Shown here piece by piece: positions 1 through 14,852 of a stretch of DNA of 14,852 bases (position 1 is the stretch's first letter; each line of letters opens with the position of its first letter). Position numbers and translations under genes: made by a program. This DNA is from a virus. The notes beneath the pieces are model-generated. The model searched no databases. It was not told where the DNA came from and worked only from the letters and a program-made list of their open reading frames with translations. The stretch lies in UHGV virus genome UHGV-1731069. One strand, written 5' to 3'.

Positions 1-566
1 CCTATTTTGAATCGGGAGTCAGAATTCATAAAACCTGAGTTAGATAACATTGGCGTCCCACCACTAGATGTACTTCCTTTAGAGAACGGACTCCACGTCC
101 CACCAAACATCTGGTACGCACCGTATGCCTTCAGAGGCGCAGTGAGCAATGTTGTTGCTGCTCCCACATTCCCCTGTTTACGGGCTGAACTGGCTTCTGC
201 TTTATAGTTGGCAGCCTGAACCTGATAACCGTAAGCCTCGCGTTGCGCGTTATTCACCGTCGTCAGCGAATCAAGAGCGCCAAACTGGGCAGTGTCGCCA
301 AATATATCCAGCGCGTTACCTGTAGATAAATCAGCGCCGGTAGCCCCCATTGTCGCCGCCTGTGTACCAAGCCGCTGTCGGGTCTCTCTGCGTCGTTGCT
401 CAGCTTCAGCGTTACCTCTGTTTATTGCATCATTTGCCTGAGCAGTGGCTATATCTGCGTTCGCTTCTGCAACCTTCGAGGCATACTTTCCCTGTTGGTA
501 CTGGGTGTATGCCTGAATGCCACTCATGGCGAGCATTGCACCACCAGCAATAACCGGATCGCACAT
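1..566 (-). CDS. Internal virion protein, N-terminal part (T7 gp14-like by recollection); truncated by window edge
   Basis: Minus-strand ATG at 566..564 overlaps the TAA stop of the upstream gene (TAATG) with GGAGA 8 nt upstream. I translated the frame by hand: 188 codons with no stop to position 1 (MCDPVIAGGAMLAMSGIQAYTQYQQGKYASKVAEANADIATAQ...). Absent from the ORF track because it has no stop in the window. Ala/Gln-rich with an MC start, like podovirus internal virion protein B; fits gene order after the tail tubular genes. Confidence 0.5.
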   Translation of the reverse strand, partial: MCDPVIAGGAMLAMSGIQAYTQYQQGKYASKVAEANADIATAQANDAINRGNAEAEQRRRETRQRLGTQAATMGATGADLSTGNALDIFGDTAQFGALDSLTTVNNAQREAYGYQVQAANYKAEASSARKQGNVGAATTLLTAPLKAYGAYQMFGGTWSPFSKGSTSSGGTPMLSNSGFMNSDSRFKI

Positions 567-1030
567 TATTTTCTCTCCATGTGAAATCTGTGGAAATTAA
601 GACCAAGAGCACCATAAGGCGCGGCTTCTTCAAGCCTGAATCCAAGCCAGTGCAGCCATGCTTTGGCAACATGGTTTCGCTCGTCGACGTAGTTTTCCAG
701 GCGCGGATAAACTGCCAGCATCTGCTGCAATACAGGGCGGCAGTGGCGCAGAAATGTCTTCTGATATTTTTCAATACGGCTGGTTCCGACCAGCCAGGGT
801 GTACCATTGCCACCGATCATTGACGCCGGAGATACACCAAACATGGTTACCAGTTCTCCGTTCGCGAACCCTGACCAGGCCATAGTCGCAGTGCGAAGAC
901 CAACACGCAGCGCATCTTCGGTAGTCATCAGCGATACCGCATACAGTTCGTCAATATCAGCCTGACGAACATCCGGCAAAATCATCTGAAGATGCTCTTC
1001 GGTGGCGGGAATAATTCGAACATCGATCAT
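566..1030 (-). CDS. Hypothetical virion-module protein (positional equivalent of podovirus internal virion protein A)
   Basis: 154-aa ORF with ATG start at 1030 overlapping the upstream stop (ATGA), and its own stop overlapping the next start. The product is not recognisable from sequence; the call rests on position and translational coupling. Confidence 0.5.
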   Translation of the reverse strand: MIDVRIIPATEEHLQMILPDVRQADIDELYAVSLMTTEDALRVGLRTATMAWSGFANGELVTMFGVSPASMIGGNGTPWLVGTSRIEKYQKTFLRHCRPVLQQMLAVYPRLENYVDERNHVAKAWLHWLGFRLEEAAPYGALGLNFHRFHMERK

Positions 1031-3501
1031 CAGAATCCCCCAACAGTAAGACGAGGAATAACGGCAAGAACAGACAGCGGCAACGGATCGAGCTGACGGA
1101 TTTTTACACGTCCGTTTTTGCCCCAGTTACTGTCCAGTTTCACTTCTACTTTTCCGGTAGCGTCATCAACAGGATCATCGTAGAACTCGAATTCACGCTG
1201 TGGATATTCGTACCATTTACCGCCGGGCGTAGTCGCCCAGATGCCGCGACTGGCATTCACAACAAGAGTAACGGACGGGATCACCTGTTTTTTGTCCAGC
1301 AGCGTTTCCTGTCCGTTAATGTTGATATCCAGTGTTTCGAATTCAGCAGTTATTGGCAGGCCGATGTGCACAACAGCCCCAGGTGATTCCAGCGTGACGG
1401 CACCTCCGGAAACCACTTTCTGTGGTTCCACGTTCGCATCAGAGAGAATGTTTACGGTCTGGCCTTCAAGATGAGACAGGCCTCCAAATGTCCGGCGCGC
1501 CATCTGCCAGTACGTGGTGGCCACATTCCTGAGGGATGGCGGGACGTTCCTGTTAGCACGAACCACTACAGCGGTATTGCTGGTTACAGAAATAATGTCG
1601 CAACGTAATTCTTTTGACACCTCATCGCCAGTATCAGGAGCAGTTCCGGTATAAGGGAACTGTAGTTGCGCGCCGACATCACTACTGGTGAAGTACGCAC
1701 CACCAGAAACACTGATTGTATATTCCGCACGGTAATCCCATTCACCAGAACCACCAGTGATGGTCATCGTTCTGTCAGACGTATTTCTTCCATCATAGCT
1801 AAGGCCAGAATCAACAAAGAAAGCATCTTCATCGCTGGTAAATAAACGGCTGGACAGTCGCTCTATGTATCTCACTGTTTGCCCGTTAACGGTTCGGTTA
1901 ACGACGAAATACACCGCATCTTCATTGCCTTCGCTGATACTGCATGTGCTTTCATATTTTCCGGTACTGGATTGTGGTGCCCATGCAAAAACCTGCTGAT
2001 CACGCAAATAGGTCATCACCAGTAATTTACCGTCATCACGAATGCAGAAGGCGCTGGAGTAAGGGACAATCGAGAAGCACCAGTCAACAATGCTGTGCTT
2101 CTGAAAAAGATGATTGGCAAGGATGGTCAGGTCGTTCCCCTGATAGCCGTCAACATCGAATGAGTAGGCCAGATCACGGACAACACTGCCTTTCTCCTGG
2201 ACGAACAGAGCAATATTCGCCACGGCAATTGGTGGGACATTGCTCGAGCCATTTGATCCCTGAGAGCTGAATGCAAATGATGATGGGGTTAATACTTTGT
2301 TCTGGTCGCCGGTGATGACGTACTCACCTCCGGAAGTCAGCGCCACCAGCGAACCAACATCAATCAGGTGGCGGATCTCATTAACCTGACGCCCGGCATA
2401 GGTGTAGATAATTCTGTCGTCATCCTGCGTAGGATTGCTTTTGCCAAAATCCTTATAATCCCCAGTACGGCTGGCCCAGATAGTCTGAGGGAATGCTGTC
2501 GATGCGGCGAAGTAAAGACGTTGTTGATAATAAACAACAGTGCCAGGATAACCGTTAACACTATTCCAGGCATATTTAGCCCATTTATAGCTGGCATTAT
2601 CCTCGCCAACTACCTGCGAAGGGATATAGGAAATCACCTCAGCAGTTGCAGTAGTTCCATTTGCAGCAGAGATACGGGCAATGCCAAAACCACTGTGCAG
2701 ATACTCCCACTCAATGCCAGTATCATCATCACCGGATCCACCCCAGCCATCCCATGATGTGCCTTCTGTATGCGAAGGGCGCAAAGTGCCTGTTTTGCCT
2801 GCTGTAACGGCGCGATAGTAGTTACTGTCTGCACGGCGAATATCGCCAATCGACGTACTCTTACTGGTTTCCCATACCGGCACTGAATCCACTGCAGGCT
2901 GTTCCAGATAGAACAATTTGCCTACCTGCTCCGCGCCAAAAATAGAGGCGCTTGCCGTTAACGTAATTGTCCCGGTGCTGGCGCTGGCATAAACCGTCAC
3001 TGACTCGTCAATATTGATATCTTCAAATGGCCCGTTCTTCGTTACCACATCAACCAGTTGCCAGTTGTCATGCGCATAGCGGCGCAACTCTTTCGGCTGG
3101 TATGCCGGGTGAACCAGCGTAAGCACGTCGGCGCTTTGCGTGAATTTAATTCGGAACAGATCGGCTTCAGTATATGGCGTGGCAATTTCATAAATAACAT
3201 TGCTGCTGTTCAGCACCAACGCACCATCTTTGATAACGCGCATGTACTGGTGTCCGAACTCCAGAGCATAGGTCTGAACCGTCGAGAACTGGAACGGGAT
3301 CAGGCGGCATTTCCGATTTGGGTATTTGGCGGCACCGACAAAACGCGTACCAGGTCGATTCTCAACGCCGCCATACTGCCGCACGATAAAGTTATCGCAC
3401 TTGCGCAATGCCACCTGGTACTTCGCCATGTCGATACGACCGTACAACGACGGTCCAATCTCACCACCGGCAAAGCTGGGCTGGATCCAACTGATAGCCA
3501 T
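1030..3501 (-). CDS. Tail tubular protein B-like (T7 gp12-type) large tail protein
   Basis: 823-aa ORF, ATGA-coupled to neighbours on both sides. N-terminus MAISWIQPSFAGGEIGPSLYGR resembles the gp12-type N-terminal motif as I recall it; size and position immediately after the adaptor-like gene fit. Confidence 0.55.
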   Translation of the reverse strand: MAISWIQPSFAGGEIGPSLYGRIDMAKYQVALRKCDNFIVRQYGGVENRPGTRFVGAAKYPNRKCRLIPFQFSTVQTYALEFGHQYMRVIKDGALVLNSSNVIYEIATPYTEADLFRIKFTQSADVLTLVHPAYQPKELRRYAHDNWQLVDVVTKNGPFEDINIDESVTVYASASTGTITLTASASIFGAEQVGKLFYLEQPAVDSVPVWETSKSTSIGDIRRADSNYYRAVTAGKTGTLRPSHTEGTSWDGWGGSGDDDTGIEWEYLHSGFGIARISAANGTTATAEVISYIPSQVVGEDNASYKWAKYAWNSVNGYPGTVVYYQQRLYFAASTAFPQTIWASRTGDYKDFGKSNPTQDDDRIIYTYAGRQVNEIRHLIDVGSLVALTSGGEYVITGDQNKVLTPSSFAFSSQGSNGSSNVPPIAVANIALFVQEKGSVVRDLAYSFDVDGYQGNDLTILANHLFQKHSIVDWCFSIVPYSSAFCIRDDGKLLVMTYLRDQQVFAWAPQSSTGKYESTCSISEGNEDAVYFVVNRTVNGQTVRYIERLSSRLFTSDEDAFFVDSGLSYDGRNTSDRTMTITGGSGEWDYRAEYTISVSGGAYFTSSDVGAQLQFPYTGTAPDTGDEVSKELRCDIISVTSNTAVVVRANRNVPPSLRNVATTYWQMARRTFGGLSHLEGQTVNILSDANVEPQKVVSGGAVTLESPGAVVHIGLPITAEFETLDININGQETLLDKKQVIPSVTLVVNASRGIWATTPGGKWYEYPQREFEFYDDPVDDATGKVEVKLDSNWGKNGRVKIRQLDPLPLSVLAVIPRLTVGGF

Positions 3502-4106
3502 CAGGACAACCTCGCAATGGTAAACTCGTCAACCGGTGGCTGTGGTTCCTGTGATTCATTCTGGCTATGCGAGCCAGCACTAAGAATCACGCGATTGTAC
3601 ATATTGAGGGCAAACGTACCGAGGTCTGCATTCCCAGTCAGCGCCATGTTAATAGCTGCCGCAAGACGCCAGGCCAACGCCTCCATAAAAATGGCATCAA
3701 ACATGTTCACATCTGAAACGCGAGAGACATACTTGAGCCATGCCTGCGGCTGGTCTGTGTAGATCAACTTTCCTGTTCCGTTGGTGTCTGCACCAACTTC
3801 GTACTGAACGCGCATTGCTGCTGTTGGATTGCGTACACCAGGAAGCATAATTTCAGTAATGCGCAGACAATCAGACGGGTACTGGTACGCATATTCCCAG
3901 TCAGGCGGTGGATTGCTCGTATCTGCAAGCGCCACGCGTTTGGTAGCAAAGTTCCAGTCAAAATCAGAAAGCACAGCATCACGGCAGGCCTCAAAGTGCA
4001 GCGAACATTCCCCCGCTTCCTTGCTGGCTTCCGTCAGGCTGTTAATGCTGCGGCTGTTGCCAATATTGGACAGCGCACGATTGCAGATCTCTACTACAGA
4101 GGCCAT
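3501..4106 (-). CDS. Head-tail adaptor / tail tubular protein A-like (T7 gp11-type)
   Basis: 201-aa ORF with ATG at 4106 overlapping the upstream stop. N-terminal ICNRALSNIGNSRSINSLTE is reminiscent of the gp11-type adaptor N-terminus; size about 200 aa and position directly before the large tail tube gene. Confidence 0.5.
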   Translation of the reverse strand: MASVVEICNRALSNIGNSRSINSLTEASKEAGECSLHFEACRDAVLSDFDWNFATKRVALADTSNPPPDWEYAYQYPSDCLRITEIMLPGVRNPTAAMRVQYEVGADTNGTGKLIYTDQPQAWLKYVSRVSDVNMFDAIFMEALAWRLAAAINMALTGNADLGTFALNMYNRVILSAGSHSQNESQEPQPPVDEFTIARLS

Positions 4107-4429
4107 TACTCACCCCCATTGCCGTACAGAGTTTCAGCCGCTGATTTTTCTACATCACCGGAAACAGGAGCGATTGCCATATCAGTGATCTGCAGATCGG
4201 CGCTGCGATTAACGCCATCGTCAGTTTCTCTGGCAGACAGGCCTCGAATAACAGCCTTTGCAGTTATCATCACTTCTGTTCCGACGCCCTGAGGTTGCGC
4301 CTTCAGCTTATTCAATGTGTCGTTATTCAGCGTGATGCACAGCCCCCATGGGTATTCATCGCGAGTTCTGGTTTCTCCGCTCTCATCCTGGTAGCTGTCA
4401 GTGCCGGTTTTGAGGTTTACGAGTTCCAT
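4106..4429 (-). CDS. Hypothetical phage protein
   Basis: The ORF track starts at GTG 4435, but the ATG at 4429 has AGGAG 5 nt upstream. Sits just after a terminator-like hairpin; stop overlaps the next start. Confidence 0.5.
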   Translation of the reverse strand: MELVNLKTGTDSYQDESGETRTRDEYPWGLCITLNNDTLNKLKAQPQGVGTEVMITAKAVIRGLSARETDDGVNRSADLQITDMAIAPVSGDVEKSAAETLYGNGGE

Positions 4430-4445
4430 ATACACTCCTGCAATA

Positions 4446-4463
4446 AAGGGGCCGAAGCCCCTT
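4446..4463 (-). terminator. GC-rich hairpin with UUCG tetraloop and short U-run, likely partial terminator or RNA stabiliser
   Basis: Plus-strand AAGGGGC-cgaa-GCCCCTT. In the minus-strand transcript this is a 7-bp stem with UUCG loop followed by UUUAUUG, lying between the stop at 4480 and the next SD. Confidence 0.4.
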
Positions 4464-4479
4464 GTCTGATTCGCGAGGC

Positions 4480-4815
4480 TTACACGCCCAGTTCTTTACG
4501 CTTATCTGCGATCTTCTCGCGGAGCGTTTCAGCTTTGGCGTTATGGTGTGGCTTCTCGTTAAAGAGCAATTCGTACTCTTCACGGAGCTTATCCAGTTCA
4601 CCATCATCTGACACATCGTTGATGATTTTGGTGCTGGTTGCTGCCATTGACACCTTTCCTGCAACTTTTGCTTTTGCCTGTCTGGCTGCATCGTTAACAG
4701 GTTCCAGTGCGCTACCAGGCTCACCTTCGTATTCGATTTCTGCCCCCTCCGGCCACAGAGTGTTATGGATATGAGAGAGGCGCAGAACGCGGTATCTTGG
4801 TTTCTCACCTGACAT
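4480..4815 (-). CDS. Hypothetical phage protein
   Basis: The ORF track starts at GTG 4824, but the ATG at 4815 is preceded by AAGGTGA with a 5-nt spacer. Lys/Glu-rich C-terminus; no recognisable family. Confidence 0.5.
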   Translation of the reverse strand: MSGEKPRYRVLRLSHIHNTLWPEGAEIEYEGEPGSALEPVNDAARQAKAKVAGKVSMAATSTKIINDVSDDGELDKLREEYELLFNEKPHHNAKAETLREKIADKRKELGV

Positions 4816-4825
4816 CGATATCACC

Positions 4826-5263
4826 TTAACCAGTTACTTTTGAGCGGATCGGATACGGCGTATTGGCATCAACATCAAGACTGATACCAGCAGTGAATTC
4901 GCCAGCCGTTAGTGGGCCAGTTGCGACGGAGTAGTTAACACGCAGATATCGCTGAACACCGGCAGGCACCTTTGCAGAAACAACTCGTTTACCTGCTGTC
5001 AGGGCGGTCTTTGCCAGTGCGCCACTATCATAAATAGTGGTCCATGAGCTGTTATCCTCACTCGTCTGCAACTGGATGTTTACAGTTGCATCACCGCTTG
5101 CCGCGGCGGCTGTGTTAACCAGCGCCCAAAACTCAAGCGGGTAACCCACGCCGATATCACGACGTTTTCCGTCAATTGGACCGAGATCGATTACGTCAGT
5201 AGAAGCCGCGGTATTCGTAACCGCCTGAGCTTCGGAGAACATCAACAGTTTGTCGGTGATCAT
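4826..5263 (-). CDS. Hypothetical virion protein, possibly a capsid accessory or decoration protein
   Basis: 145-aa ORF immediately downstream of the major capsid gene, ATG at 5263 with GGAG 8 nt upstream. Gly/Ala/Thr/Val-rich, beta-rich-looking composition. Function is inferred from position only. Confidence 0.45.
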   Translation of the reverse strand: MITDKLLMFSEAQAVTNTAASTDVIDLGPIDGKRRDIGVGYPLEFWALVNTAAAASGDATVNIQLQTSEDNSSWTTIYDSGALAKTALTAGKRVVSAKVPAGVQRYLRVNYSVATGPLTAGEFTAGISLDVDANTPYPIRSKVTG

Positions 5264-5278
5264 CTTCTTTCTCCATTA

Positions 5279-5298: not shown

Positions 5299-5314
5299 AG
5301 GTTAATAACAGGCG

Positions 5315-6301
5315 TTACACCACGCGGGCTTCTGTTTCCAGAAGCGCATCAGTCTCACGGATTGGTACACCACGGAATGAAGTCCACCACTCGCCTTCTG
5401 TCTCTTTTACGCTGATCGCCAGAGATGTTTTCTCCAGAGATTGCAGATCAAGAGCCTGGCCTACAGTGCGGTTCATGTAGAACACCGGGCGGCCCATGCC
5501 ACGGTTTGGAATGCGATGCAGTGCTTTAACCATCAACTTCGCAATATTTGCTGCAGAGGAAGGTTCTGAAAGATTGCTGACATCGATGTTTGCAATGCGA
5601 ACAACATAACGCCAGTCACGGAGAGCAAGCCCGTTGTCCCATTTGTAATGGGTACGGTAGCCTTCGTACTTGCCGCCATTCGCATCTTCCAGTGTCACCT
5701 GGCCTTTATCTTCCATCTGGATGCCAGCCTTCTGCCCTTTCGGGAAGATGCCATGCACGGTGTTTTCGCCCCACACCACTAACCAGATTGAGGTGTTATC
5801 TGTACCCGTGCCACCAGCATCAATGATGTTCTGAGCATTACCCGCAGACAGGCTGGAATAGCGGGAGGACAGTCCCATAAACTGCTGAGGGTTAACGCTG
5901 GAATCACCATAAAACAGCGTCTGCGCCATCTGCTGATTCATCGCTTCAATAAATGCGCGGTCTTCAGACAGGCGGAATTCGGCGGTATTGCCGTTCAGAT
6001 CAGCCAGTGACTTATCGACTTCAGCATAGGTTTCCAGCATGCCAACGGAATCGGTTACCTGCACTGTGGTTGATTTGCTTGGCTGTACGCCATAGTTCAG
6101 CAAACGCCAGGTAGCTGAAGGTAAACCAGAACGAATGGTGGTTCGGTGTCCGGTAGGAAGGTTCCCTTCGACAAAAGGCATATCCTGAAGGATCGGGTTA
6201 GTTTGACCGAGAAGCTCGATAATCTTATCGACTTTCCCGTTTGGATCGACGCGCTTACCCCAGTCAGCCAGCGTTAGCGCAGTTAAGCCTTTAACAGCCA
6301 T
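5315..6301 (-). CDS. Major capsid protein
   Basis: About 330 aa, directly after the scaffold gene in the usual portal-scaffold-capsid order. The ORF track begins at ATG 6307, but GAGG lies only 2 nt upstream of it; the ATG at 6301 has about 8-nt spacing and is the more likely start. Confidence 0.7.
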   Translation of the reverse strand: MAVKGLTALTLADWGKRVDPNGKVDKIIELLGQTNPILQDMPFVEGNLPTGHRTTIRSGLPSATWRLLNYGVQPSKSTTVQVTDSVGMLETYAEVDKSLADLNGNTAEFRLSEDRAFIEAMNQQMAQTLFYGDSSVNPQQFMGLSSRYSSLSAGNAQNIIDAGGTGTDNTSIWLVVWGENTVHGIFPKGQKAGIQMEDKGQVTLEDANGGKYEGYRTHYKWDNGLALRDWRYVVRIANIDVSNLSEPSSAANIAKLMVKALHRIPNRGMGRPVFYMNRTVGQALDLQSLEKTSLAISVKETEGEWWTSFRGVPIRETDALLETEARVV

Positions 6302-6315
6302 TGTCATTTCCTCTC

Positions 6316-7011
6316 TTATTTGCCATAGAGCACTTCGGCCGCACTACGCTGGCCTTCATTACCACCGGTGACCATGCCATCTTCAGACATCGCCTTTCCG
6401 ATTTTCACGAACGTCTTGACCAGATCAGGGTGATTACCCAGTCCGGTGGTGTTCAGATATTCTTTGAGCTCAGGTGTCCCGAACTGGTCAAGCGCACGCT
6501 GCGCGGCGCTAAGGTTAGAAATCAACTTGTCGCCACCGATTTCTTTGTCAGCTTTTACATCAGCAGCCCACTGCTCGGTTGTTTTCTGCCAGGCTTCTGC
6601 CTGGCGCTGCTGAACACCTGCCAGAATCTTCGGATAAGCATCAACCAGCTTTTGCGCTTGCTCGTTGGTCAGGTTTAGTTCTCGCGCCACCGGCTCGAAT
6701 TCCTTCAACGCTTCTGTATCCAGCTCTACGCCTTCGGCAGCCTGAAACTCGTACTTCTCAGGCGCACCCTCTGGTTCATCGCCGTCCTTTTTTTCATCCT
6801 GCTTATCGTTTTCAGGCTTTTTGTCAGCAGCAGGTTTATCGCCATCAGCAACAGGTTGTGGCTTATCACCTTCCTGTTGTGATGGATCACCAACTGGAGC
6901 AGGGTTATCACCTGCAGGCGCTGACGGTTCTGACGCAGCCGGAGCTGCTCCACCATCGACTGGTTGCTCATTGCAAAGACGGCTATACAGCAAACGCTCA
7001 AATAAATTCAT
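6316..7011 (-). CDS. Scaffolding protein
   Basis: Acidic, low-complexity, Pro/Ala/Asp/Glu/Lys-rich protein between portal and capsid genes. The ORF track starts at GTG 7017; the ATG at 7011 has AGGAG with a 5-nt spacer. Confidence 0.6.
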   Translation of the reverse strand: MNLFERLLYSRLCNEQPVDGGAAPAASEPSAPAGDNPAPVGDPSQQEGDKPQPVADGDKPAADKKPENDKQDEKKDGDEPEGAPEKYEFQAAEGVELDTEALKEFEPVARELNLTNEQAQKLVDAYPKILAGVQQRQAEAWQKTTEQWAADVKADKEIGGDKLISNLSAAQRALDQFGTPELKEYLNTTGLGNHPDLVKTFVKIGKAMSEDGMVTGGNEGQRSAAEVLYGK

Positions 7012-7013
7012 GA

Positions 7014-7310
7014 TCACTCCTGTTCACTGGCCTCTTTGGCCATCTTCAAATACTGTTCAGGGCAATGCGCCATAACGCGCTGAAACAGTTCCAGCGCCAG
7101 ATTGCGTTGCCCCTCATTAAATGCCATTGCCATAGCGTCCATCGGCGAGATAGCGGAAAACACACGGCCTTTCTCCAGTACCGACCAGACAACCCGACGC
7201 CCCTGTTCACAGCTCATGACAAAGCGAATGTCATCAATTTCACGCTGTGCCATGTCACGTTGCTTACGGGCGTTTTCTTCTTTCAGTTGATCGTCTTCGT
7301 AATCTGTCAT
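7014..7310 (-). CDS. Hypothetical phage protein between portal and scaffold
   Basis: 98-aa ORF, ATG at 7310 overlapping the portal stop (ATGA), GGGTGGG upstream. No recognisable motif. Confidence 0.5.
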   Translation of the reverse strand: MTDYEDDQLKEENARKQRDMAQREIDDIRFVMSCEQGRRVVWSVLEKGRVFSAISPMDAMAMAFNEGQRNLALELFQRVMAHCPEQYLKMAKEASEQE

Positions 7311-8986
7311 TGTGATTGCCCACCCTGACCACTAACTGCATTCGCCATAGCTGACAAAACACTCGGATCCGAAGTTTTAGCTTCGCTTAGCGTCTTGGCC
7401 CCCTGTGCCGCCGCCATCCCCATCGCCATCATTTGTTGCTGCTGTTGCTGCTGTGCCCGTTGCTGGCGAGCCTGCTCAACCTGTTCCTGCGGAACAATGA
7501 CGGTTGGAGACACTCCGGACATATCAGCGAATGCATCGATCGCCTGATCAACGTTGAGTTTGTCGAGAGCTTCTGGTTTCGCTTGCGCAAGTTGACCAAT
7601 GAAGTTAACCGTGGACGCCAGACTGGACAGGCCGATAGACTTCTGCGCCTGAGCCATGACGGAAATGTATTCGACCTTCAGGGGCATGCCTTCCATCGCG
7701 TCAGGCGGTGGCGGCAGCATGTTTTTACGCACCATCATCGAGAAAGCGCGGTCAATGAGAGGATTAAGACATTCGTCGTTCAGACGCTCCAGAACCGGCC
7801 CCAACATCAGAAGTTTTTCTTCTTTCATTTCGATCACCGCTTCAACAGGCATCGAGCGGGTATTGATGTTCTGCAACATCATGAACAGATCGACAAAGTA
7901 GGCGCTGTTAATGATTTGACGAGTGTCCTGAATGTCTGCCACCAAATCTGCTGTACTGGGGTTAACCAGATAAGCAGGCCTGAAGCCATCCTGACCAGTA
8001 ATCTGATCGATATACGTGATGTCGCCAGGAAGAAGGGAGGCGCGCTGATTCTTGAGGGAAGTCGGAGCAACCATCGGCGGATTGGTGGCTTTATCAATCA
8101 ACTGCGACTTGCGCTTCTGGAGAAGCTGCAATGCCTTAACAGGTCCAAGCGCCAGCATGCCCGGGCATGATGATCCATAAACATCTTCACCGTTAACTTC
8201 CCAGCGCGGAGCCATAATTGGAAACTCATCGAATCCGGACTCACGCAACAACTTGTCGTTATCGCCACCAACCTCGTAATAAACCGATTTGAATGGCTTG
8301 TTCTTGCTATCCAGCTTCGATGTATCGCGGTCAATGTTCGGGTAAACCGAATGCATCACGTCAATCCACTTCTCGTAGATGCCGCTTTCCCACATGCTTT
8401 TTACGGATTCGCTGACGTTATTTAGCCCGAACTCCTGAACAAGCTGACGAACAGTCATAGAGAACTTGCGAAAACAGGTGTCAACACTGCCACGAGGTGA
8501 GTTAGCCAGGTAGTAACTGCCTATCGGGAATGGCATTGTGCGAATGATGTCCTCATCATCCTCCAGTACCGCCATTGCACCGGTGCTGTATGTGCCGAGG
8601 CTTCCGTATAACTGCGGCAGCGACTGATAGAGATTCGACTTATTGAACATATCGTTCATGCGGTTCTGCACCGCCTCAAGCCACAACTTAACAGGGCCAT
8701 AATCCATCATTTCAGGATCTGGCGTAGCCAGGCGAAACCACGGACGCGCGGGGCTTGTGATGCCTGACATCATGCCGCTGGCGAGAGTGCGCGCCGCCAT
8801 AGTCCCGGTCGAATCAATAATGTGTGTATTGCGCCGATCGTTACGGTTGGCCTCAGAAGTCAGAAAGCGGGAACCACGCGGGTTGATGTAATCACTCAAC
8901 TCGCGCCAGTGCGGCTCGAACGACTGACGCTCGCTTTCAAGTTGTGCGAACTGTTTGTTCAATCGCTCTTTAGTTGTTTCCGCCAT
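7307..8986 (-). CDS. Portal (head-tail connector) protein
   Basis: 559-aa ORF, ATG at 8986 with GGAG 8 nt upstream. Size, position after the terminase and a Gln/Met/Ala-rich C-terminal tail (QQQQQQQMMAMGMAAAQGA) resemble the T7 gp8-type connector as I recall it. Confidence 0.75.
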   Translation of the reverse strand: MAETTKERLNKQFAQLESERQSFEPHWRELSDYINPRGSRFLTSEANRNDRRNTHIIDSTGTMAARTLASGMMSGITSPARPWFRLATPDPEMMDYGPVKLWLEAVQNRMNDMFNKSNLYQSLPQLYGSLGTYSTGAMAVLEDDEDIIRTMPFPIGSYYLANSPRGSVDTCFRKFSMTVRQLVQEFGLNNVSESVKSMWESGIYEKWIDVMHSVYPNIDRDTSKLDSKNKPFKSVYYEVGGDNDKLLRESGFDEFPIMAPRWEVNGEDVYGSSCPGMLALGPVKALQLLQKRKSQLIDKATNPPMVAPTSLKNQRASLLPGDITYIDQITGQDGFRPAYLVNPSTADLVADIQDTRQIINSAYFVDLFMMLQNINTRSMPVEAVIEMKEEKLLMLGPVLERLNDECLNPLIDRAFSMMVRKNMLPPPPDAMEGMPLKVEYISVMAQAQKSIGLSSLASTVNFIGQLAQAKPEALDKLNVDQAIDAFADMSGVSPTVIVPQEQVEQARQQRAQQQQQQQMMAMGMAAAQGAKTLSEAKTSDPSVLSAMANAVSGQGGQSQ

Positions 8987-9000
8987 TTCAATGACTCCGG

Positions 9001-9207
9001 TTACTGACCAAGCAGCGTTTTACCGCTGGTATTAGCAGTTGATGTGTCGCCCTGAGAACCGGTAAGCAGCGTAGAACTACGACCAGCAGCAGCGCGACGG
9101 CGACGTGTTTCTTCGTCGCGGGCATCAACAACGGCGGCATCCTGCTCCTGTGGTGCTGCCTGAACTTCTGGTGTTGCAGGCACTGATGGTGAGCTACCCA
9201 TGCACAT
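9001..9207 (-). CDS. Small low-complexity protein upstream of portal (possibly a gp7.3-like virion protein)
   Basis: 68-aa ORF with ATG at 9207. Its translation initiation region (CGGAGTCATTGA then ATG) duplicates the portal's over 12 nt, which supports real translation. Ala/Pro/Gln/Ser/Thr-rich with an RRRR cluster. Confidence 0.4.
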   Translation of the reverse strand: MCMGSSPSVPATPEVQAAPQEQDAAVVDARDEETRRRRAAAGRSSTLLTGSQGDTSTANTSGKTLLGQ

Positions 9208-9635: not shown

Positions 9636-9712
9636 GTGGCATTAGCTCAGTTGGACAGAGCAACCGCCTTCTAAGCGGTTGGTCGCAGGTTCGAATCCTG
9701 CATGCCACGCCA
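9636..9712 (+). tRNA. tRNA-Arg (anticodon TCT, reads AGA), argU-like, phage-encoded
   Basis: Hand-folded cloverleaf: acceptor GTGGCAT/ATGCCAC, D-stem GCTC/GAGC, anticodon stem ACCGC/GCGGT with loop CTTCTAA (anticodon TCT), T-arm GCAGG-TTCGAAT-CCTGC, discriminator G and encoded CCA. Closely resembles E. coli argU as I recall it but with a different acceptor stem. Confidence 0.9.
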
Positions 9713-9755
9713 GAATCACGCCTAAGGACCGTGATGCCAGAAGTTCCAGGGGCTT

Positions 9756-9797
9756 GGCGGTGATGGTTTCCCTTGAAGGACTATCACCGCCCTTTTT
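9756..9797 (+). terminator. Intrinsic terminator-like hairpin downstream of the tRNA
   Basis: 9-bp perfect stem GGCGGTGAT / ATCACCGCC with an 18-nt loop, followed by CTTTTT. Confidence 0.45.
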
Positions 9798-9875
9798 ACA
9801 GCAGGACGCCATTGCGATGACTTCATGCTGTAAACCAGTACAGCCACGGAAGGCATAACTCATTGCTTCCAGTTC

Positions 9876-9899
9876 GCCCGGTTCGCCGGGCATTTTTTT
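9876..9899 (+). terminator. Intrinsic terminator-like hairpin immediately upstream of the 139-aa ORF
   Basis: GCCCGG-ttcg-CCGGGC (UUCG tetraloop), then A and seven T. The SD AGGTGA (9901-9906) and ATG 9911 follow directly. Confidence 0.55.
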
Positions 9900-9910
9900 A
9901 AGGTGAGATC

Positions 9911-10330
9911 ATGAAGACAATTGATATGTTGGCTAAGTATCTAAATGAATGGCCATTAAAATATTCTCGTATCGTTCAGGCTGAAGACTGCATTTTTTAT
10001 GGCGTTTTTGCTGATAATGAAATGCATTACGAAGTAATTCAGAGTGAGGGACTGGCCGGGTTAACTCTTAGCGAAGACCATGGTACTAGCGTTACGTTCC
10101 ATGACTGGATAACAGCACAACGTTCTGAAATGGAAAAAGGCGATGTGTTTGATATTTCTCGCGCTGTTTACGCTAAAGCAAAAAGTGATAATGATTACAT
10201 GAGCGAACACTTATACAACATGAAGTTACAATGCCTGCATGCGGCGCTTATTCAGAATGGGCACTTCGATAAAACAAGTGCCATCAATATTGCGGAAGCC
10301 ATCAACGCTGGATTTAATGCCATTAAATAA
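9911..10330 (+). CDS. Hypothetical protein, moron-like accessory gene of unknown function
   Basis: 139-aa ORF on the opposite strand to all flanking genes, with SD AGGTGA 4 nt before the ATG and its own downstream terminator. Hand count gives about 30-37 percent G+C over the first 110 nt, clearly below the flanking structural genes. No recognisable catalytic motif or transmembrane segment. Confidence 0.6.
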   Translation: MKTIDMLAKYLNEWPLKYSRIVQAEDCIFYGVFADNEMHYEVIQSEGLAGLTLSEDHGTSVTFHDWITAQRSEMEKGDVFDISRAVYAKAKSDNDYMSEHLYNMKLQCLHAALIQNGHFDKTSAINIAEAINAGFNAIK

Positions 10331-10333
10331 CAC

Positions 10334-10347
10334 CGTGACATGTCACA
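10334..10347. repeat. CGTGACATGTCACA, containing the perfect 12-bp palindrome GTGACATGTCAC (copy 1)
   Basis: Read directly; lies between the stop of the 139-aa ORF and its terminator, 74 nt from the large terminase stop. An identical 14-mer is at 12599-12612. Confidence 0.6.
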
Positions 10348-10350
10348 AAC

Positions 10351-10377
10351 AGCCAGCCGATGAGCTGGCTTTGTTTT
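10351..10377 (+). terminator. Intrinsic terminator of the 139-aa ORF
   Basis: AGCCAGC-cgatga-GCTGGCT followed by TTGTTTT. Confidence 0.6.
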
Positions 10378-10420
10378 ATCCTCATCAGAGGATATCAACG
10401 ACATTATCCCCACCAGCGGA

Positions 10421-11896
10421 TTAAGCATAGGGATCGTAATCTGTGATGGCCTTGCCTTGCTGGTTCTGCTGCCCGGGAATTCGCAGACGCTTCGACACAG
10501 GAAAAGCAAACGTCAGCAGTAGCGCATCGCCTTTACCCGGCGAACGCCCAAGCCGCTCCTTGATATCTTCCTTCGGTTCGATAACGATTTTACCGTCCAC
10601 GCGAACTTTGTACTCTGCCGCCGACAGGTCGTCTGCAGTTTCCTGGTCATCCAGCATGCCGCCCAGCCTCAGCCATGTCTTACATGAGTTGAACATCTCC
10701 CCACGCTTGTTGAGCATCTGCGGGTCAGTAGACGCGCCACCGAACGGAACAAGTTGCCATGTACGACCCCAGCCGTCACCGATTGACTTCAGACCAGTTC
10801 CGTAACCGAAGTCGATGAACACTGCGTCAGCCTGGTACTGGTCTTCAAAGTCAGCGATACGCTTCGCCATAATCAGATCGTCAGTGGTCTTGTTGCCAGT
10901 CCACAGCACCTTACTGTGCAGCCCCTGCCGCAGGTATATCACAGCGTCATCAACGCCTGAGTATGCCGGGTCAACGCCGATTATCACCGGAGCATGTGCA
11001 ACCTGCGCAGCGGTGACCACCCGTTTCATTGCCTCGTCAGTAAGTCCGGTAGGGATAAACTGCAATTCAGATGCATCCGGGAATATGCCGCGCACACGGA
11101 TTTTAACGAAGTCGCTGTCTTCCCCGTAGTCATCAACCCATTTCTGCAACTGCTGTTTGTTGGTGCCTTCCACCGTCCGGCTGTCAATCTGCGCAGTTTT
11201 CCAGCGGTGTTTATATTTGCGGAAACATTCGCGGAAACGTCCGGTATTACGCGTCGGGTTTCCGAACGCCACCCAGATAATCTCAGTGTCTTCGTCCGTA
11301 AGCGCACCCTCAGCAACTTCCCACACCAGATCCGCAATGTTCGACGCTTCATCGAATACCACGATGATGCGTTTGCGCTCGTTGTGTAGTCCGGCGAATG
11401 CCTCAGTGTTGTGCTCAGACCAGGGGATTGCGTCAGCTCGCCACCGCTTGTCGTGCCCAGGATCATTGCTGTACATCGCGGTAGCGGTACAGGTAAACCA
11501 GTCTTTCGTGATAGCAAGGTTCGACCACTTGATAATTTCCGGCCAGGTCTTCGTTCGTAGCTGGTTGTCGGTGTTGGCAGTCACCACGACCTTACAATCC
11601 TCGCAAGTGGACATGCCCCAGTTGATCAGCATTGAGATGAATGCGGATTTACCAATACCGTGACCAGAAGCGCGTGCCAGCATAAGCGGCTGATAGCGCG
11701 TCTCTGGATTCTGCAGGTGATCACGTATCTCTCGGAACGCATCAGCCTGCCACTGACGTGGGCCGGTGGCATGTGCCAGTTCAGTCCCCTCTTCCCCCCA
11801 CGGGAACGCATAGAGGGCATAGCCAAGCGGATCGTGAGTGAACCCTGCAATATCCTCGATCAACTGCTCTTCAGGAGATAACGCTGTATCTGTCAC
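10421..11896 (-). CDS. Terminase large subunit
   Basis: 491 aa with Walker A-like ARASGHGIGKS, Walker B-like IIVVFDEAS, and a C-terminal nuclease-like region (VIIGVDPAYSGVDDAV). GTG start at 11896 overlaps the small subunit stop (GTGA); there is no in-frame ATG nearby. Confidence 0.85.
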   Translation of the reverse strand: MTDTALSPEEQLIEDIAGFTHDPLGYALYAFPWGEEGTELAHATGPRQWQADAFREIRDHLQNPETRYQPLMLARASGHGIGKSAFISMLINWGMSTCEDCKVVVTANTDNQLRTKTWPEIIKWSNLAITKDWFTCTATAMYSNDPGHDKRWRADAIPWSEHNTEAFAGLHNERKRIIVVFDEASNIADLVWEVAEGALTDEDTEIIWVAFGNPTRNTGRFRECFRKYKHRWKTAQIDSRTVEGTNKQQLQKWVDDYGEDSDFVKIRVRGIFPDASELQFIPTGLTDEAMKRVVTAAQVAHAPVIIGVDPAYSGVDDAVIYLRQGLHSKVLWTGNKTTDDLIMAKRIADFEDQYQADAVFIDFGYGTGLKSIGDGWGRTWQLVPFGGASTDPQMLNKRGEMFNSCKTWLRLGGMLDDQETADDLSAAEYKVRVDGKIVIEPKEDIKERLGRSPGKGDALLLTFAFPVSKRLRIPGQQNQQGKAITDYDPYA

Positions 11897-12489
11897 TGAT
11901 TACCATCCTGACGTTCTTTGAGTCGCTTCCTGGCTGCTGCTATGCGATCAGCAATTGTCACATTCACATTAACATCCAGACGTTCTTTGAACGCGTTGAC
12001 ATCAACATGCTTACCAATCAGCTCAAGGTTCTTCACCTTGTCAGGCCATTTAATTTTTTTGAGGATTGTCTCTATCGAATCCTCGTTCATGTTCATGATG
12101 GTCGATGACAGATCAAAGCCACTAAGCGTAGTGCGCCAGATTTTCGGCCACTCACGGATTGGTTTAAGGCTCCCATCGTCGTTGAGGATATCGATCACGT
12201 CCATCTGGTCGATCTCCACCAGGCGCATGAGAACGTAATCAGCACTGACGCGCATTCGTTTGTTGCGCTCCTCCATCAACTCGGCAATCCGTTTTTGAAT
12301 GCGTTCATCGCGCATCATGACACTGGCTTTAACTGCCGCTGTATTTGGGGAGAATCCTGCATTAATCGCTGCCTGAGTCTGGTTTTCAGGCGTTTTGATG
12401 TATGACTGGCAATAAGCCTCCTGCATTGCTGTTAGTGGCTTAAATTGCGTTGATTTGCGTTTATAGGTTTTAGGTTCAGCAGGCATCAT
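11893..12489 (-). CDS. Terminase small subunit (Terminase_2-like)
   Basis: Helix-turn-helix region QEAYCQSYIKTPENQTQAAINAGFSPNTAAV...RIQKRIAELMEER is typical of Terminase_2-type small subunits as I recall them. The ORF track starts at TTG 12567, but that extension contains a terminator hairpin and direct repeats; the ATG pair at 12489/12486 follows GGTGG. True start is probably 12486 or 12489. Confidence 0.75.
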   Translation of the reverse strand: MMPAEPKTYKRKSTQFKPLTAMQEAYCQSYIKTPENQTQAAINAGFSPNTAAVKASVMMRDERIQKRIAELMEERNKRMRVSADYVLMRLVEIDQMDVIDILNDDGSLKPIREWPKIWRTTLSGFDLSSTIMNMNEDSIETILKKIKWPDKVKNLELIGKHVDVNAFKERLDVNVNVTIADRIAAARKRLKERQDGNQ

Positions 12490-12496
12490 AACCACC

Positions 12497-12525
12497 GTGG
12501 TAATAGTTACCGTTGTGGTAATAGT
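12497..12525. repeat. Two 11-bp direct repeats GTGGTAATAGT just upstream of the terminase small subunit start
   Basis: Copies at 12497-12507 and 12515-12525, between the upstream terminator and the start codon. Could be protein-binding sites; function unknown. Confidence 0.4.
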
Positions 12526-12530
12526 ACCAT

Positions 12531-12558
12531 GCAAAATAAAGCCGCCATAGTTGGCGGC
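12531..12558 (-). terminator. Intrinsic terminator separating the accessory operon from the terminase genes
   Basis: In the minus transcript: GCCGCCA-acua-UGGCGGC followed by UUUAUUUUG. Confidence 0.55.
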
Positions 12559-12598
12559 AGTATTCAAAACCCATCAAATTCATCATGCATAATCTACT

Positions 12599-12612
12599 CG
12601 TGACATGTCACA
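12599..12612. repeat. CGTGACATGTCACA, containing the perfect 12-bp palindrome GTGACATGTCAC (copy 2)
   Basis: Identical 14-mer to 10334-10347; overlaps the TGA stop (12608-12610) of the upstream minus-strand gene and lies upstream of the terminator and terminase start. Confidence 0.6.
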
Positions 12613-12946
12613 CTATTAATTTCGTTTCATGCCAGCCTTTAGTCACCCAGCATTGCGAGTCACCATTACACGGGCATGAATTCACAGGAACTCTCTCGCC
12701 GCACTTACCGCAACGTTTTCTGCCGATCGATTTTATACGCCCGTGCGCGCGAGCATCATCCTGGCGGATAAGTAACGCAATATACTCACCAAATTCGTAA
12801 GGCACACGCCCGGGGCGACGCGTGGCGCAGTTCCGCTCCAGCATTTCAATTTCCTGAGCATCAAGCACAATCTCCAGCTTACGTACACCGGATGCAGCTT
12901 GTCTGGCTCTCTGAGCGGCTTTGCGCTCTGCTGCTGATTTAGCCAT
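12608..12946 (-). CDS. Putative small DNA-binding protein: ribbon-helix-helix-like N-terminus plus C-terminal Cys-rich zinc-ribbon-like tail
   Basis: 112 aa, ATG at 12946. RKLEIVLDAQEIEMLERNCATRRPGRVPYEFGEYIALLIRQD has the strand-helix-helix pattern of RHH (Arc/CopG-type) domains; the C-terminus has CGKCG...CPCNGDSQC. Family assignment is pattern-based and tentative. Confidence 0.45.
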   Translation of the reverse strand: MAKSAAERKAAQRARQAASGVRKLEIVLDAQEIEMLERNCATRRPGRVPYEFGEYIALLIRQDDARAHGRIKSIGRKRCGKCGERVPVNSCPCNGDSQCWVTKGWHETKLIV

Positions 12947-13289
12947 TCTGATTTTCCTGCATCATGAGAAATACAATCATGGCGGCTCGGAGTGGATTAT
13001 TCGCATGAAAGCAAATGTTCTCAGCATTAAAAACAGCTGACCACTCACCGCGAGAGTGGTGGCAGGTTAGACTGATTTTATTATCAACAATAATAGGCCA
13101 TGCATCCGATGGATTATTGCAGTAGTCAGGTAAAGGGTTTAATGGCTCAAAAGTTGTATCAGTATTTCCGTAATACCATTTGTTGGTGTTATTCCCTGAT
13201 GTTTCCGGTTTACACGCCCAAAGGCCTTTAAAAATTATGTCTCCTACCATTCTGTTAATTTCAAAATCACTTAACTGTGAATAGTCCAT
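12939..13289 (-). CDS. Hypothetical small Cys/His-containing phage protein
   Basis: The ORF track starts at GTG 13292; the ATG at 13289 overlaps the upstream stop (TGATG) with GGAGG 7 nt upstream. Overlaps the downstream gene by 8 nt. Vaguely resembles small DUF-type proteins of lambdoid nin regions, but not confidently. Confidence 0.5.
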   Translation of the reverse strand: MDYSQLSDFEINRMVGDIIFKGLWACKPETSGNNTNKWYYGNTDTTFEPLNPLPDYCNNPSDAWPIIVDNKISLTCHHSRGEWSAVFNAENICFHANNPLRAAMIVFLMMQENQNG

Positions 13290-14179
13290 CACTTCACCTC
13301 CTGCGGCGGTTCTGGTAGAGGCATCCAGTGAGTTACATGTGCCCCGTAATGATTCCAGAACGACGCAACTGGCGCACTGTCTCCATCAGGGACAACCCAG
13401 TAATCGTGATGAACTTTATTATTAAGCCCATCAAACACCAGATACTCTTTACAACTTCCGGGAATGTTCTCAGGCATTCGCTCACTACAGCTTATCCAAC
13501 CATCCGGAGTTACCGGAACTTGCGGAATGGCTGTCTGCTCTCGAACGTCATTAGGCGCTATAGGTTCTGCTGCCAACTGACTGGCATATTTGTTAATGGT
13601 AACGATAAGCTCTTGCTCAGCCTCATCCAGACAATCACCGATACCTCGCCTGTCACCGTCAAAATCATCGAAATCGGCACGAATCTTGGCAACCTTCTGG
13701 ATTGCGGACAACACCTCACTAGGAATTACCGGATAGTTGGTTGACGTTTCCGCGATTTCCCGAAAATTATTGGTTGACGAATTCTTGTTTTCCCGAAAGT
13801 TTCCGGACTGAAGCATGGCGGCGCGGCAGGCGTTCCAGCCTCTCACCTCTGCAATAGCGGCAACAGCATCAACCGCGTACATGCTAAGAGGATTAGGCAT
13901 TGGTTTTTCTTCCGGTACTACTGGAACGGGGGGAGCGGCGTAGACCTCAATAATTCCATTATCAATAGGCCATTCTCCATCCTTGAGGTAGTCACTTGTG
14001 CCGTCAACTTGCTGTTCTGCAATGTGGAATGCACCTATTGGTTTTGCTTCCAGCGATGCCAGAGCAATTCGTGCCAGTTCTTCCGCTTCTTCTGCTGGCA
14101 GTACAACGTTGCTATCAGGTCCGTATGTTTCGCGCCACTGCTTGATTGTCAGCAGTCGCTCTTTGGTAATAGTGGTCAT
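13289..14179 (-). CDS. DUF551-like phage protein
   Basis: 296 aa, ATG at 14179 with AAGGAGAG upstream. The C-terminal motif WNHYGAHVTHWMPLPEPP matches what I recall as the hallmark of DUF551 domains in temperate-phage early regions. Confidence 0.55.
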   Translation of the reverse strand: MTTITKERLLTIKQWRETYGPDSNVVLPAEEAEELARIALASLEAKPIGAFHIAEQQVDGTSDYLKDGEWPIDNGIIEVYAAPPVPVVPEEKPMPNPLSMYAVDAVAAIAEVRGWNACRAAMLQSGNFRENKNSSTNNFREIAETSTNYPVIPSEVLSAIQKVAKIRADFDDFDGDRRGIGDCLDEAEQELIVTINKYASQLAAEPIAPNDVREQTAIPQVPVTPDGWISCSERMPENIPGSCKEYLVFDGLNNKVHHDYWVVPDGDSAPVASFWNHYGAHVTHWMPLPEPPQEVK

Positions 14180-14180
14180 A

Positions 14181-14819
14181 TCACTCTCCTTTGATGCGAA
14201 TGCCAGCGTCAGACATCATATGCAGATACTCAACTGCATCCTGAACCCATTGACCGCCAATCCCGTAATAGCGATGCGTAATGATGTCGATAGTTACTAA
14301 CGGGTCTTGTTCGATTAACTTCCGCAGAAACTCTTCCAAGTCACCAGTGCAGTGCTTGATGACAGGAGTTTTCCCAGGATGGCGAACAACAAGAAACTGA
14401 TTTCCGACTTCACGGACTTCGTTGCTTTCCAGTTCTGCAATGCGCTTCTCTGCGGCTTCCAGCTTCTCGCGCATATCGTCAACGTACTCGACCAGAGATC
14501 CGCCAGCAGGAATTTCGCATTCCTCGACCAGTTGGAAGTAGATATCAACTGCGGCCCGTGTGTTGCTATGCCTAGCGTCGCCCATCTCACCTTCACGAAG
14601 AGCATCGCGTTCGGCGGTAAGATTGGCTATTTTGCTGTCTTTGCCTTCCAGCTCAACGCGCAGCCTCCCAACCGTAAGCGCAATATCCTCGTTCTCCTGG
14701 TCGCGGCGTTTGATGTATTGCTGGTTTCTTTCCCGTTCATCCAACAATACCAGCGCGATATCTGGCGAAAAGTGCTTCATAAAATCGTTAAGCGCATTAA
14801 TTCGCTGATCGAAAGGCAT
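14181..14819 (-). CDS. Coiled-coil phage protein, possibly Ead/Ea22-like; may extend beyond the window
   Basis: At least 212 aa from ATG 14819, but the frame stays open to the window edge (11 further codons, no stop), so the real start may lie outside. Central heptad-like segment LRVELEGKDSKIANLTAERDALREGE. Confidence 0.4.
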   Translation of the reverse strand: MPFDQRINALNDFMKHFSPDIALVLLDERERNQQYIKRRDQENEDIALTVGRLRVELEGKDSKIANLTAERDALREGEMGDARHSNTRAAVDIYFQLVEECEIPAGGSLVEYVDDMREKLEAAEKRIAELESNEVREVGNQFLVVRHPGKTPVIKHCTGDLEEFLRKLIEQDPLVTIDIITHRYYGIGGQWVQDAVEYLHMMSDAGIRIKGE

Positions 14820-14852
14820 TACAGGTGCTTCACCAGCAATTTTTGTTTTTTC

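Follow-up and report, generated by a model that had tools for sequence, protein, structure and literature searches.

The sequence under study is a 14,852-nucleotide stretch (the window) of UHGV virus genome UHGV-1731069, given as one strand, 5′ to 3′. The window almost certainly comprises the late operon, for packaging and morphogenesis, and the last few early accessory genes of a phiV10-type Uetakevirus. Phages of this type are temperate podoviruses specific for the O-antigen and are common as prophages of Escherichia coli. In a preliminary description, the same genes had been presented as a mosaic of a T7-type virion module with a terminase and accessory genes in the style of temperate phages. 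Following comparison with phage and E. coli genomes, this architecture was found to be that of an established genus.

Assignment of the window to Uetakevirus

The whole window was compared with phage genomes by megablast, and its prevalence was determined in a set of 5,426 complete E. coli genomes. Phages HEMP4, TL-2011b, vB_EcoP_ZX5, PAS61, phiv142-3 and phiV10 and O157 typing phages 9 and 10 matched at 97-98% identity over 82-92% of the window, and Salmonella phage epsilon15 matched at about 77% nucleotide identity; all belong to Uetakevirus or are closely related to it. The genus-level threshold by convention of the International Committee on Taxonomy of Viruses is 70% nucleotide identity. 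Identity to the recognised members of Uetakevirus lies above this value, calculated on the 14.9-kb window and not on a whole genome. In a per-gene comparison, the phiV10 group showed 96-100% amino acid (aa) identity for every gene from the putative regulator to internal virion protein A (IVP-A), with the gene order unchanged. The late operon of epsilon15 was collinear with the window, its proteins being 36-95% identical. Annotated records of phiV10, TL-2011b and epsilon15 contained a counterpart of every late-operon gene (TerS, TerL, gp3, portal, gp5-gp14) in identical order. The window also encodes an epsilon15-type capsid protein of PF20911 (E 2e-149) and a gp10-type staple protein of PF21628 (E 1e-51), which were taken as marks of Uetakevirus. 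At least 80% of the window was held by 488 of the 5,426 genomes (about 9%), and some match to it was present in 3,439.

The idea of a notable mosaic did not survive this comparison: by the preliminary description's own terms, the same order in a well-characterised temperate group would make the arrangement ordinary, and epsilon15 and phiV10 form such a group. The genes that it had named were all found on the minus strand in the order given there, with support far beyond chance. The late operon reads as follows, from its first gene to the left end of the window (ORF, open reading frame).

11893..12567 (longest ORF) or 11893..12486, minus: terminase small subunit, TerS (Pfam PF03592 Terminase_2, E 1e-29)
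10421..11896, minus: terminase large subunit, TerL, 491 aa (phrog_2, E 1e-52)
9001..9207, minus: epsilon15 gp3-like small protein, 68 aa (phrog_831)
7307..8986, minus: portal protein of the T7 gp8 family, 559 aa (Pfam PF12236, E 5e-187; PDB 8ck0_A 'Portal protein', E 2e-178)
7014..7310, minus: Bbp19-like small head-region protein, 98 aa (Pfam PF25181, E 2e-16)
6316..7017, minus: scaffold-like protein, 233 aa, labelled 'protease' or 'peptidase' (phrog_458 'protease')
5315..6307, minus: major capsid protein of the epsilon15 gp7/BPP-1 type, HK97 fold (Pfam PF20911, E 2e-149)
4826..5263, minus: Bbp16-family capsid cement protein, 145 aa (Pfam PF21190, E 3e-47; RefSeq homologue 'Bbp16 family capsid cement protein')
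4480..4824, minus: epsilon15 gp9-like protein, 111-114 aa (phrog_590)
4106..4435, minus: epsilon15 gp10-like capsid staple/decoration protein (Pfam PF21628 Gp10-like, E 1e-51; RefSeq homologue 'capsid staple protein')
3501..4106, minus: head-to-tail adaptor with the T7 gp11/tail tubular protein A fold, 201 aa (AlphaFold model and Foldseek)
1030..3501, minus: tail nozzle, counterpart of T7 gp12/tail tubular protein B, 823 aa (PDB 8ck1_A 'Tail Nozzle', E 2e-217; phrog_376)
566..1030, minus: IVP-A, in the T7 gp13 position, 154 aa (phrog_308 'internal virion protein')
1..566, minus: internal virion protein B (IVP-B), T7 gp14 family (Pfam PF24072, E 4e-8; RefSeq homologue 'virion core protein, T7 gp14 family')

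Four head genes of this list, for the Bbp19-like protein, the Bbp16-type cement, the gp9-like protein and the gp10-type staple, were missing from the preliminary description. The gp9-like protein was 99% identical (aa) in the phiV10 group and 40% in epsilon15; the corresponding values for the gp3-like protein were 100% and 88%. The IVP-B ORF runs past the left end of the window, which holds 188 of its approximately 191 codons. For TerS, the longest ORF starts at a TTG and encodes 224 aa, as annotated in phiV10, and this version spans the terminator-like hairpin at 12541-12558. An ATG at 12486 gives a protein of 197 aa (594 bp), as annotated in TL-2011b, and is probably the true start. A NCBIfam scan of the ten proteins without Pfam assignment gave nothing useful.

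Transcription on the minus strand proceeds from the Ead/Ea22, DUF551 and NinX genes through the putative regulator and a terminator-like hairpin to TerS and TerL. From the protein families, the following course of events would be expected. TerS and TerL would drive the DNA through a portal, which as a member of the T7 gp8 family would be a dodecamer. The HK97-fold capsid protein of the epsilon15 gp7 type would build the head, aided by the 233-aa scaffold-like protein, and the gp10-type staple and the Bbp16-type cement would reinforce it. The gp11-like adaptor and the gp12-like nozzle would then close the portal and form a short tail. Finally, the gp13- and gp14-like internal virion proteins, together with larger ones encoded beyond the left end of the window, may constitute an ejected core that forms a channel across the cell envelope.

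For ZX5, phiV10 and epsilon15, experiments have documented a temperate life cycle, a functional integrase and the attP core; the core reported for phiV10 and epsilon15 is attgagtgggaatgatt, and the 3′ end of guaA was shown to be the site at which ZX5 integrates (PMC9782041). A search for this core located it in the phiV10 and epsilon15 loci. It was absent from the 14.9-kb window, as expected with the lysogeny module lying outside. This module (tyrosine integrase, attP and repressor) and an O-antigen-specific tailspike, likewise encoded outside the window, are present in relatives. The complete genomes of phiV10 and epsilon15 encode an integrase and a repressor, and no RNA polymerase is listed for them. 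The related prophage of E. coli A_5 (NZ_CP195580.1) carries, in its early part, an integrase, RecT and nuclease genes, a helix-turn-helix repressor-type gene, DnaT-like and P replication genes and accessory genes. Its counterpart of the present operon is followed by genes for a transglycosylase, a large uncharacterised protein, antirepressors, a tail fiber/tailspike, holins, an endolysin and a spanin-region gene. On either side of the A_5 prophage lies a fragment of an autotransporter adhesin gene, the right-hand fragment being annotated as BigA. The A_5 locus does not contain the attgagtgggaatgatt core. More than one integration site is therefore used within the group.

Several results weigh against the assignment as a temperate Uetakevirus with a T7-related virion. 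The window has no integrase, repressor or att site, so that the temperate lifestyle rests on near-identical relatives. The exact combination of accessory genes was found in one piece in 0 of the 5,426 complete E. coli genomes. Moreover, phmmer and BLASTP searches with all window proteins against a 12-protein set of T7 gp8-gp19 gave nothing significant.

It is improbable that the source of the window is a decaying, non-inducible prophage remnant. The difference between the 3,439 E. coli genomes with some match and just 488 holding at least 80% is in line with such decay, and related prophages contain pseudogenes among their accessory genes and in the antirepressor region. However, all 19 operon genes are intact, with lengths as in plaque-forming phages and 96-100% aa identity to them, and neither frameshifts nor insertion elements were seen in the window.

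Ancestry of the virion and packaging proteins

Portal family PF12236 is common to the window and T7 gp8 (E 3e-113 for the latter), and T7 gp14 belongs, like IVP-B, to family PF24072. The portal C-terminus is rich in Gln and Met (QQQQQQQMMAMGMAAAQG) and resembles that of T7 gp8 (KQQKMAQQSMQMGMDNGAAALAQGMAAQ), as had been noticed in the preliminary description. The adaptor had no match to Pfam PF17212. Its structure was modelled with AlphaFold from an alignment of 31 homologues (predicted local distance difference test score 85.7), and the model was compared with PDB using Foldseek. Matches were obtained to Carin-1 8ck1_E (E 4e-16), LME-1 (E 2e-9), PhiM1 (E 1e-6) and the tail tubular protein A of KP32, and to T7 gp11 (7box_M) with E 3e-6, a probability of 1.00 and a template modelling score of 0.58. 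A literature search on PDB codes 8CK0, 8CK1 and 8CJZ yielded no relevant paper, and the name Carin-1 is taken from the fold-search description.

The nozzle, 88% identical (aa) to epsilon15 gp12, had no direct match to Pfam PF25675. For the epsilon15 tubular tail B group (gp12), a strong match to the T7 group was reported on comparison of hidden Markov models, 'strong' being defined as E <1e-10 (Hardies 2016, PMC4819975). IVP-A and IVP-B of epsilon15 were described there as 'very standard' homologues in syntenous position. Epsilon15 gp13, the IVP-A homologue, is annotated with a GNAT fold.

The remaining T7 families were not matched by the window. The capsid protein of T7 belongs to PF21703 (here PF20911), its scaffold to PF05396 (no match for the 233-aa protein), its TerS to PF11123 (here PF03592) and its TerL to PF22530. 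TerL of the window had no Pfam match, whereas T7 gp19 matches both PF22530 and PF03237, and a PDB sequence search with TerL gave no match. The capsid protein aligned in PDB with the major capsid chain of 3j4u (433 bits) and with 3j40, which is epsilon15 gp7 (290 bits). A T7-type virion module was thus retained for the portal, the adaptor fold, the nozzle and the internal virion proteins, all distantly related to T7, and given up for the capsid, the decoration proteins and the terminase.

The T7 relationship is ancient, because pairwise similarity between window and T7 proteins was not significant. It rests on profiles, on the predicted adaptor fold and on the literature. The best T7 matches, all weak, fell on syntenic counterparts (portal with gp8, E 1e-3; IVP-A with gp13, 0.025; 233-aa protein with gp9, 0.037; IVP-B with gp14, 0.09), a placing that is suggestive only.

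The 233-aa gene lies between the portal and capsid genes, which is the position of T7 gp9. No protease family was found for its product in Pfam or NCBIfam, and the comparison with PDB gave one weak and biologically unrelated match (E 0.065). The protein contains 1 His and 1 Cys. Its N-terminal 90 residues are rich in Pro, Asp and Glu. Beyond this N-terminal third, the sequence has many Ala, Glu, Leu and Lys residues, a composition that suggests helices. The 'endoprotease' label in epsilon15 goes back to similarity to an unverified Salmonella annotation. Judged from its sequence and position, the product is probably a scaffolding protein and the widespread database label 'protease' wrong. The earlier naming of a scaffold gene is accordingly the more plausible of the two, though not proved.

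For epsilon15, the terminase was reported to map with those of siphoviruses, which 'marks an interfamily horizontal transfer'; according to the same authors, the capsid proteins follow the terminase, whereas the ensemble of tail and core proteins was inherited along the podoviral line (Hardies 2016, PMC4819975). That the portal, tail and core are T7-related but the terminase and capsid are not is an old trait of the whole epsilon15/BPP-1 group and not the product of recent recombination. The mosaic appearance is therefore real at a deep evolutionary scale and was already published for the epsilon15 group. What holds of the proposed temperate podovirus-like hybrid is the temperate podovirus and the non-T7 terminase; its novelty does not, the design being the known one of Uetakevirus.

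With regard to Autographiviridae, a T7-type portal, the gp11 fold, a gp12 nozzle and gp14 are present, but these are common to many podovirus groups and are no proof of membership. A T7-type capsid, scaffold, TerS and TerL are lacking, as is the combination of an RNA polymerase with a strictly lytic lifestyle: no RNA polymerase gene occurs in the window or is listed for its relatives. The portal and coat families of P22 and lambdoid phages were not found either, and only NinX, Ead/Ea22 and DUF551 are shared with that pool. A P22-like hybrid was rejected, since the portal matches only PF12236 and the capsid only PF20911.

Recent joints, accessory genes and the TerL-portal interval

Breakpoints were determined by blastn of the window against five relatives and fell at gene boundaries. 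Breaks at 12946 and about 13330 delimit the NinX gene, the joints in the accessory genes lying at about 12946 and 13290; on the far side, DUF551 and Ead/Ea22 are shared only in part. At the other end, positions 1-84 (the IVP-B C-terminus) diverge from phiV10 and TL-2011b and match the E. coli A_5 prophage. As far as these alignments go, there are just three places of recent mosaicism: the ORF at 9911-10330, the 84 bases at the left end and, upstream of 12946-13330, the accessory genes. Positions 4115-6352 break against epsilon15 only: the capsid, Bbp16 cement, gp9-like and gp10 staple proteins are 36-43% identical (aa), against 80-95% for the flanks. Together with the higher PDB score of the capsid protein for 3j4u than for epsilon15 gp7, this difference suggests that the capsid-shell genes were replaced long ago within the genus. 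Upstream of the packaging genes, the window contains the following genes.

14181..14819, minus: Ead/Ea22-like coiled-coil accessory protein, 212 aa (Pfam PF13935, E 7e-14; phrog_250)
13289..14179, minus: DUF551-domain accessory protein, 296 aa (Pfam PF04448 at residues 227-293, E 7e-14)
12939..13292, minus: NinX-family protein, 117 aa (Pfam PF10765, E 1e-16)
12608..12946, minus: putative transcriptional regulator, epsilon15 gp49/phiV10 p55-like, 112 aa (phrog_536, E 3e-53)

DUF551 and coiled-coil genes upstream of the terminase had been named before and were confirmed by the PF04448 and PF13935 matches. The Ead/Ea22 gene is variable among relatives (29-76% coverage). The DUF551 protein is modular, with three different PHROG segments along its length, and is covered for 20-38% in the closest Uetakevirus relatives. 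For the region of both genes (13285-14852), the best E. coli matches, at 93-98% identity, were on plasmids of about 94 kb and not on Uetakevirus prophages. One such plasmid matched by the accessory genes is pEC13-3 (NZ_CP060930.1), and one of the plasmids carries a Phd/YefM antitoxin gene. These matches indicate that the DUF551/Ead accessory genes circulate among very different temperate elements. NinX was 99% identical (aa) to its counterpart in the E. coli A_5 prophage and 72% to that of TL-2011b, and is not present in phiV10 and epsilon15. The gene for the putative regulator is the last before the packaging genes, its product being 97% identical (aa) to that of phiV10 and 75% to that of epsilon15. 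Pieces of the accessory genes were matched in 3,426 of the 5,426 E. coli genomes. A PADLOC scan of the accessory and opposite-strand proteins gave nothing meaningful, a weak PglZ match (15.8 bits) being dismissed. The accessory genes derive from a shared pool of enterobacterial temperate phages and represent the familiar mosaicism at gene boundaries.

The terminase was described as lying immediately upstream of the portal, which is only loosely correct. Approximately 1.4 kb separate the end of TerL (10421) from the start of the portal gene (8986), and within this interval a plus-strand ORF, a tRNA-Arg gene and the 68-aa gp3-like gene are found. The 1.2-kb part with the plus-strand features extends from 10420 to 9208. 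The ORF and the tRNA gene are on the plus strand, all other substantial genes of the window being on the minus strand. The features of the interval, and the hairpin between the regulator and TerS, are listed below.

12541..12558, minus: terminator-like hairpin GCCGCCAACTATGGCGGC followed by a T-run, between the regulator gene and TerS (terminator scan)
10351..10370, plus: terminator-like hairpin with T-run, between the convergent plus-strand ORF and TerL, equivalent to a phiV10 terminator
9911..10330, plus: opposite-strand ORF, 139 aa (phrog_4846, E 3e-88)
9756-9791 and 9876-9891, plus: hairpins with T-runs, downstream of the tRNA-Arg gene (terminator scan)
9636..9712, plus: tRNA-Arg, anticodon TCT (ARAGORN; Rfam RF00005, 73 bits)

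A palindrome element had been proposed to mark the junctions of the mosaic; none was found. A search of the window for inverted repeats gave three weak pairs only. Perfect hairpins with a stem of at least 8 bp numbered 3, versus 2.85 in shuffled sequences, and terminator-like sites 20, versus 14.3 +/- 4.4, so that nothing stood above chance. The convincing stem-loops (12541-12558, 10351-10370, 9876-9891 and 9756-9791) are all intergenic and of the ordinary terminator-like kind. Those at 12541-12558, 10351-10370 and 9876-9891 match terminators annotated in epsilon15 and phiV10; at the place matching 12541-12558, the annotated terminators are rho-independent.

TerS was 100% identical (aa) to that of phiV10, and TerL was 99% identical to that of phiV10 and 95% to that of epsilon15. 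Both subunits, at 99-100% to the phiV10 group and 77-95% to epsilon15, are comparable to the portal and tail genes, and all these genes together co-vary with the same relatives (97-100% for the phiV10 group, 77-95% for epsilon15). Because the terminase and the portal and tail genes track the same relatives, modules of different ancestry do not meet in the TerL-portal interval. A recombination joint of T7-like and lambdoid parts was also considered for this interval and ruled out, the relatives being the same on both sides.

Epsilon15 and phiV10 have a TerL-portal interval of the same layout, with annotated terminators. In the blastn comparison, the match to phiV10, TL-2011b, typing phage 9 and the A_5 prophage is lost at 9899-9915, near the start codon of the plus-strand ORF, and regained at 10326-10351, around its stop codon. 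In this slot, the four relatives have an unrelated ORF of 348-372 bp ('Gp49 family' or Sf6 gp66-like). The version in the window occurs among the phages only in HEMP4 (84% aa identity), PAS61 (69%) and Tyrion (C-terminal part), and in 114 of the 5,426 E. coli genomes. Its 139-aa product had no Pfam, NCBIfam or PADLOC match. The hairpin at 9876-9891 is separated from the ORF start (9911) by 19 nt.

The tRNA-Arg gene was the sole match in an Rfam scan of the window and is annotated also in O157 typing phage 9 and in E. coli prophages. Approximately 400 bp of non-coding DNA lie between it and the gp3-like gene, and no epsilon15 blastn match was obtained for positions 9316-9761. Two minus-strand ORFs, at 9642-9893 (83 aa) and 9334-9609 (91 aa), overlap the tRNA-Arg gene and the non-coding leader. 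The former corresponds to hypothetical protein p04 in phiV10 and gp24 in TL-2011b, and is probably spurious, as it is antisense to the tRNA gene. In the whole-window megablast, 64 Synechococcus phage records and more than 200 records of Stx-converting phages were also matched; the former matches are probably due to the tRNA-Arg segment and the latter to the accessory genes.

It is conceivable, though rather doubtful, that the slot with its tRNA-Arg gene, hairpins and swapped ORF is a conserved exchange site of Uetakevirus prophages, in which the ORF versions would be prophage-expressed factors for host benefit or superinfection exclusion.

It is extremely improbable that the window represents a novel hybrid, formed recently from a virion module of the T7 type (Autographiviridae) and a P22/lambdoid terminase with accessory genes, and with a palindrome at the joints. 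The portal and one internal virion protein do fall in T7 Pfam families, the adaptor has the gp11 fold, the terminases are not of the T7 type, and DUF551, Ead/Ea22 and NinX are common to lambdoid phages and the E. coli plasmids of about 94 kb. Against this, many isolated phages of a single genus share the block from TerS to the internal virion proteins at 96-100% protein identity, and epsilon15 is collinear with it. Similarity to T7 lies below pairwise detection, so that a common origin, if any, must be ancient, and neither the capsid nor the decoration proteins are T7-type. A palindromic repeat element is missing, in close relatives the TerL-portal interval is no breakpoint with a different partner on each side, and the arrangement was already published.

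Comparison with known phages

As a discovery, the window is of small value, being a region of an ordinary member of a known genus in one of the better-studied groups of temperate podoviruses. Its value is corrective. The 'hybrid' look is the ancestral epsilon15/BPP-1 architecture, the actual recent joints are the accessory genes and the small opposite-strand slot, and the 'protease' label is probably wrong.

The O157:H7 phage phiV10, whose O-acetyltransferase acetylates the host O-antigen, and its kin share with the window the gene order from the gp49-like regulator to the internal virion proteins, a matching tRNA-Arg region and proteins that are 96-100% identical. PhiV10 differs in its version of the plus-strand ORF, in the accessory genes beyond about 12946-13330 and in the last 84 bases of the window, which encode the IVP-B C-terminus.

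Epsilon15, the type species of Uetakevirus and a model phage of cryo-electron microscopy, is collinear throughout: Ead/Ea22, DUF551, gp49, the terminator, TerS, TerL, an opposite-strand gene, gp3 and gp4-gp14 all have their counterparts. By protein, identity is 95% for TerL, 88% for the nozzle, 85% for the adaptor and 80% for the portal. However, epsilon15 lacks the tRNA-Arg region and NinX, and its capsid-shell proteins are just 36-43% identical.

In phage T7, the genes for portal, scaffold (by position), capsid, adaptor, nozzle, gp13 (by position) and gp14 follow one another as they do in the window. Its terminase genes lie at the far end of the late region, whereas here they lie upstream of the portal, and the window, from a temperate phage, has additional cement and staple genes.

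Among podoviruses of the epsilon15 group with other hosts (BPP-1, Carin-1 and Legionella phage LME-1), likeness extends to the Bbp16 and Bbp19 families found in the window, and portal, adaptor and nozzle chains of Carin-1 (8ck0, 8ck1) and LME-1 (9efk) are matched by window proteins. The capsid of 3j4u is that of Bordetella phage BPP-1, according to an annotation note in the epsilon15 RefSeq record. Identity to these phages is much lower (32% for the adaptor with Carin-1), and the window contains neither a diversity-generating retroelement nor a tropism cassette.

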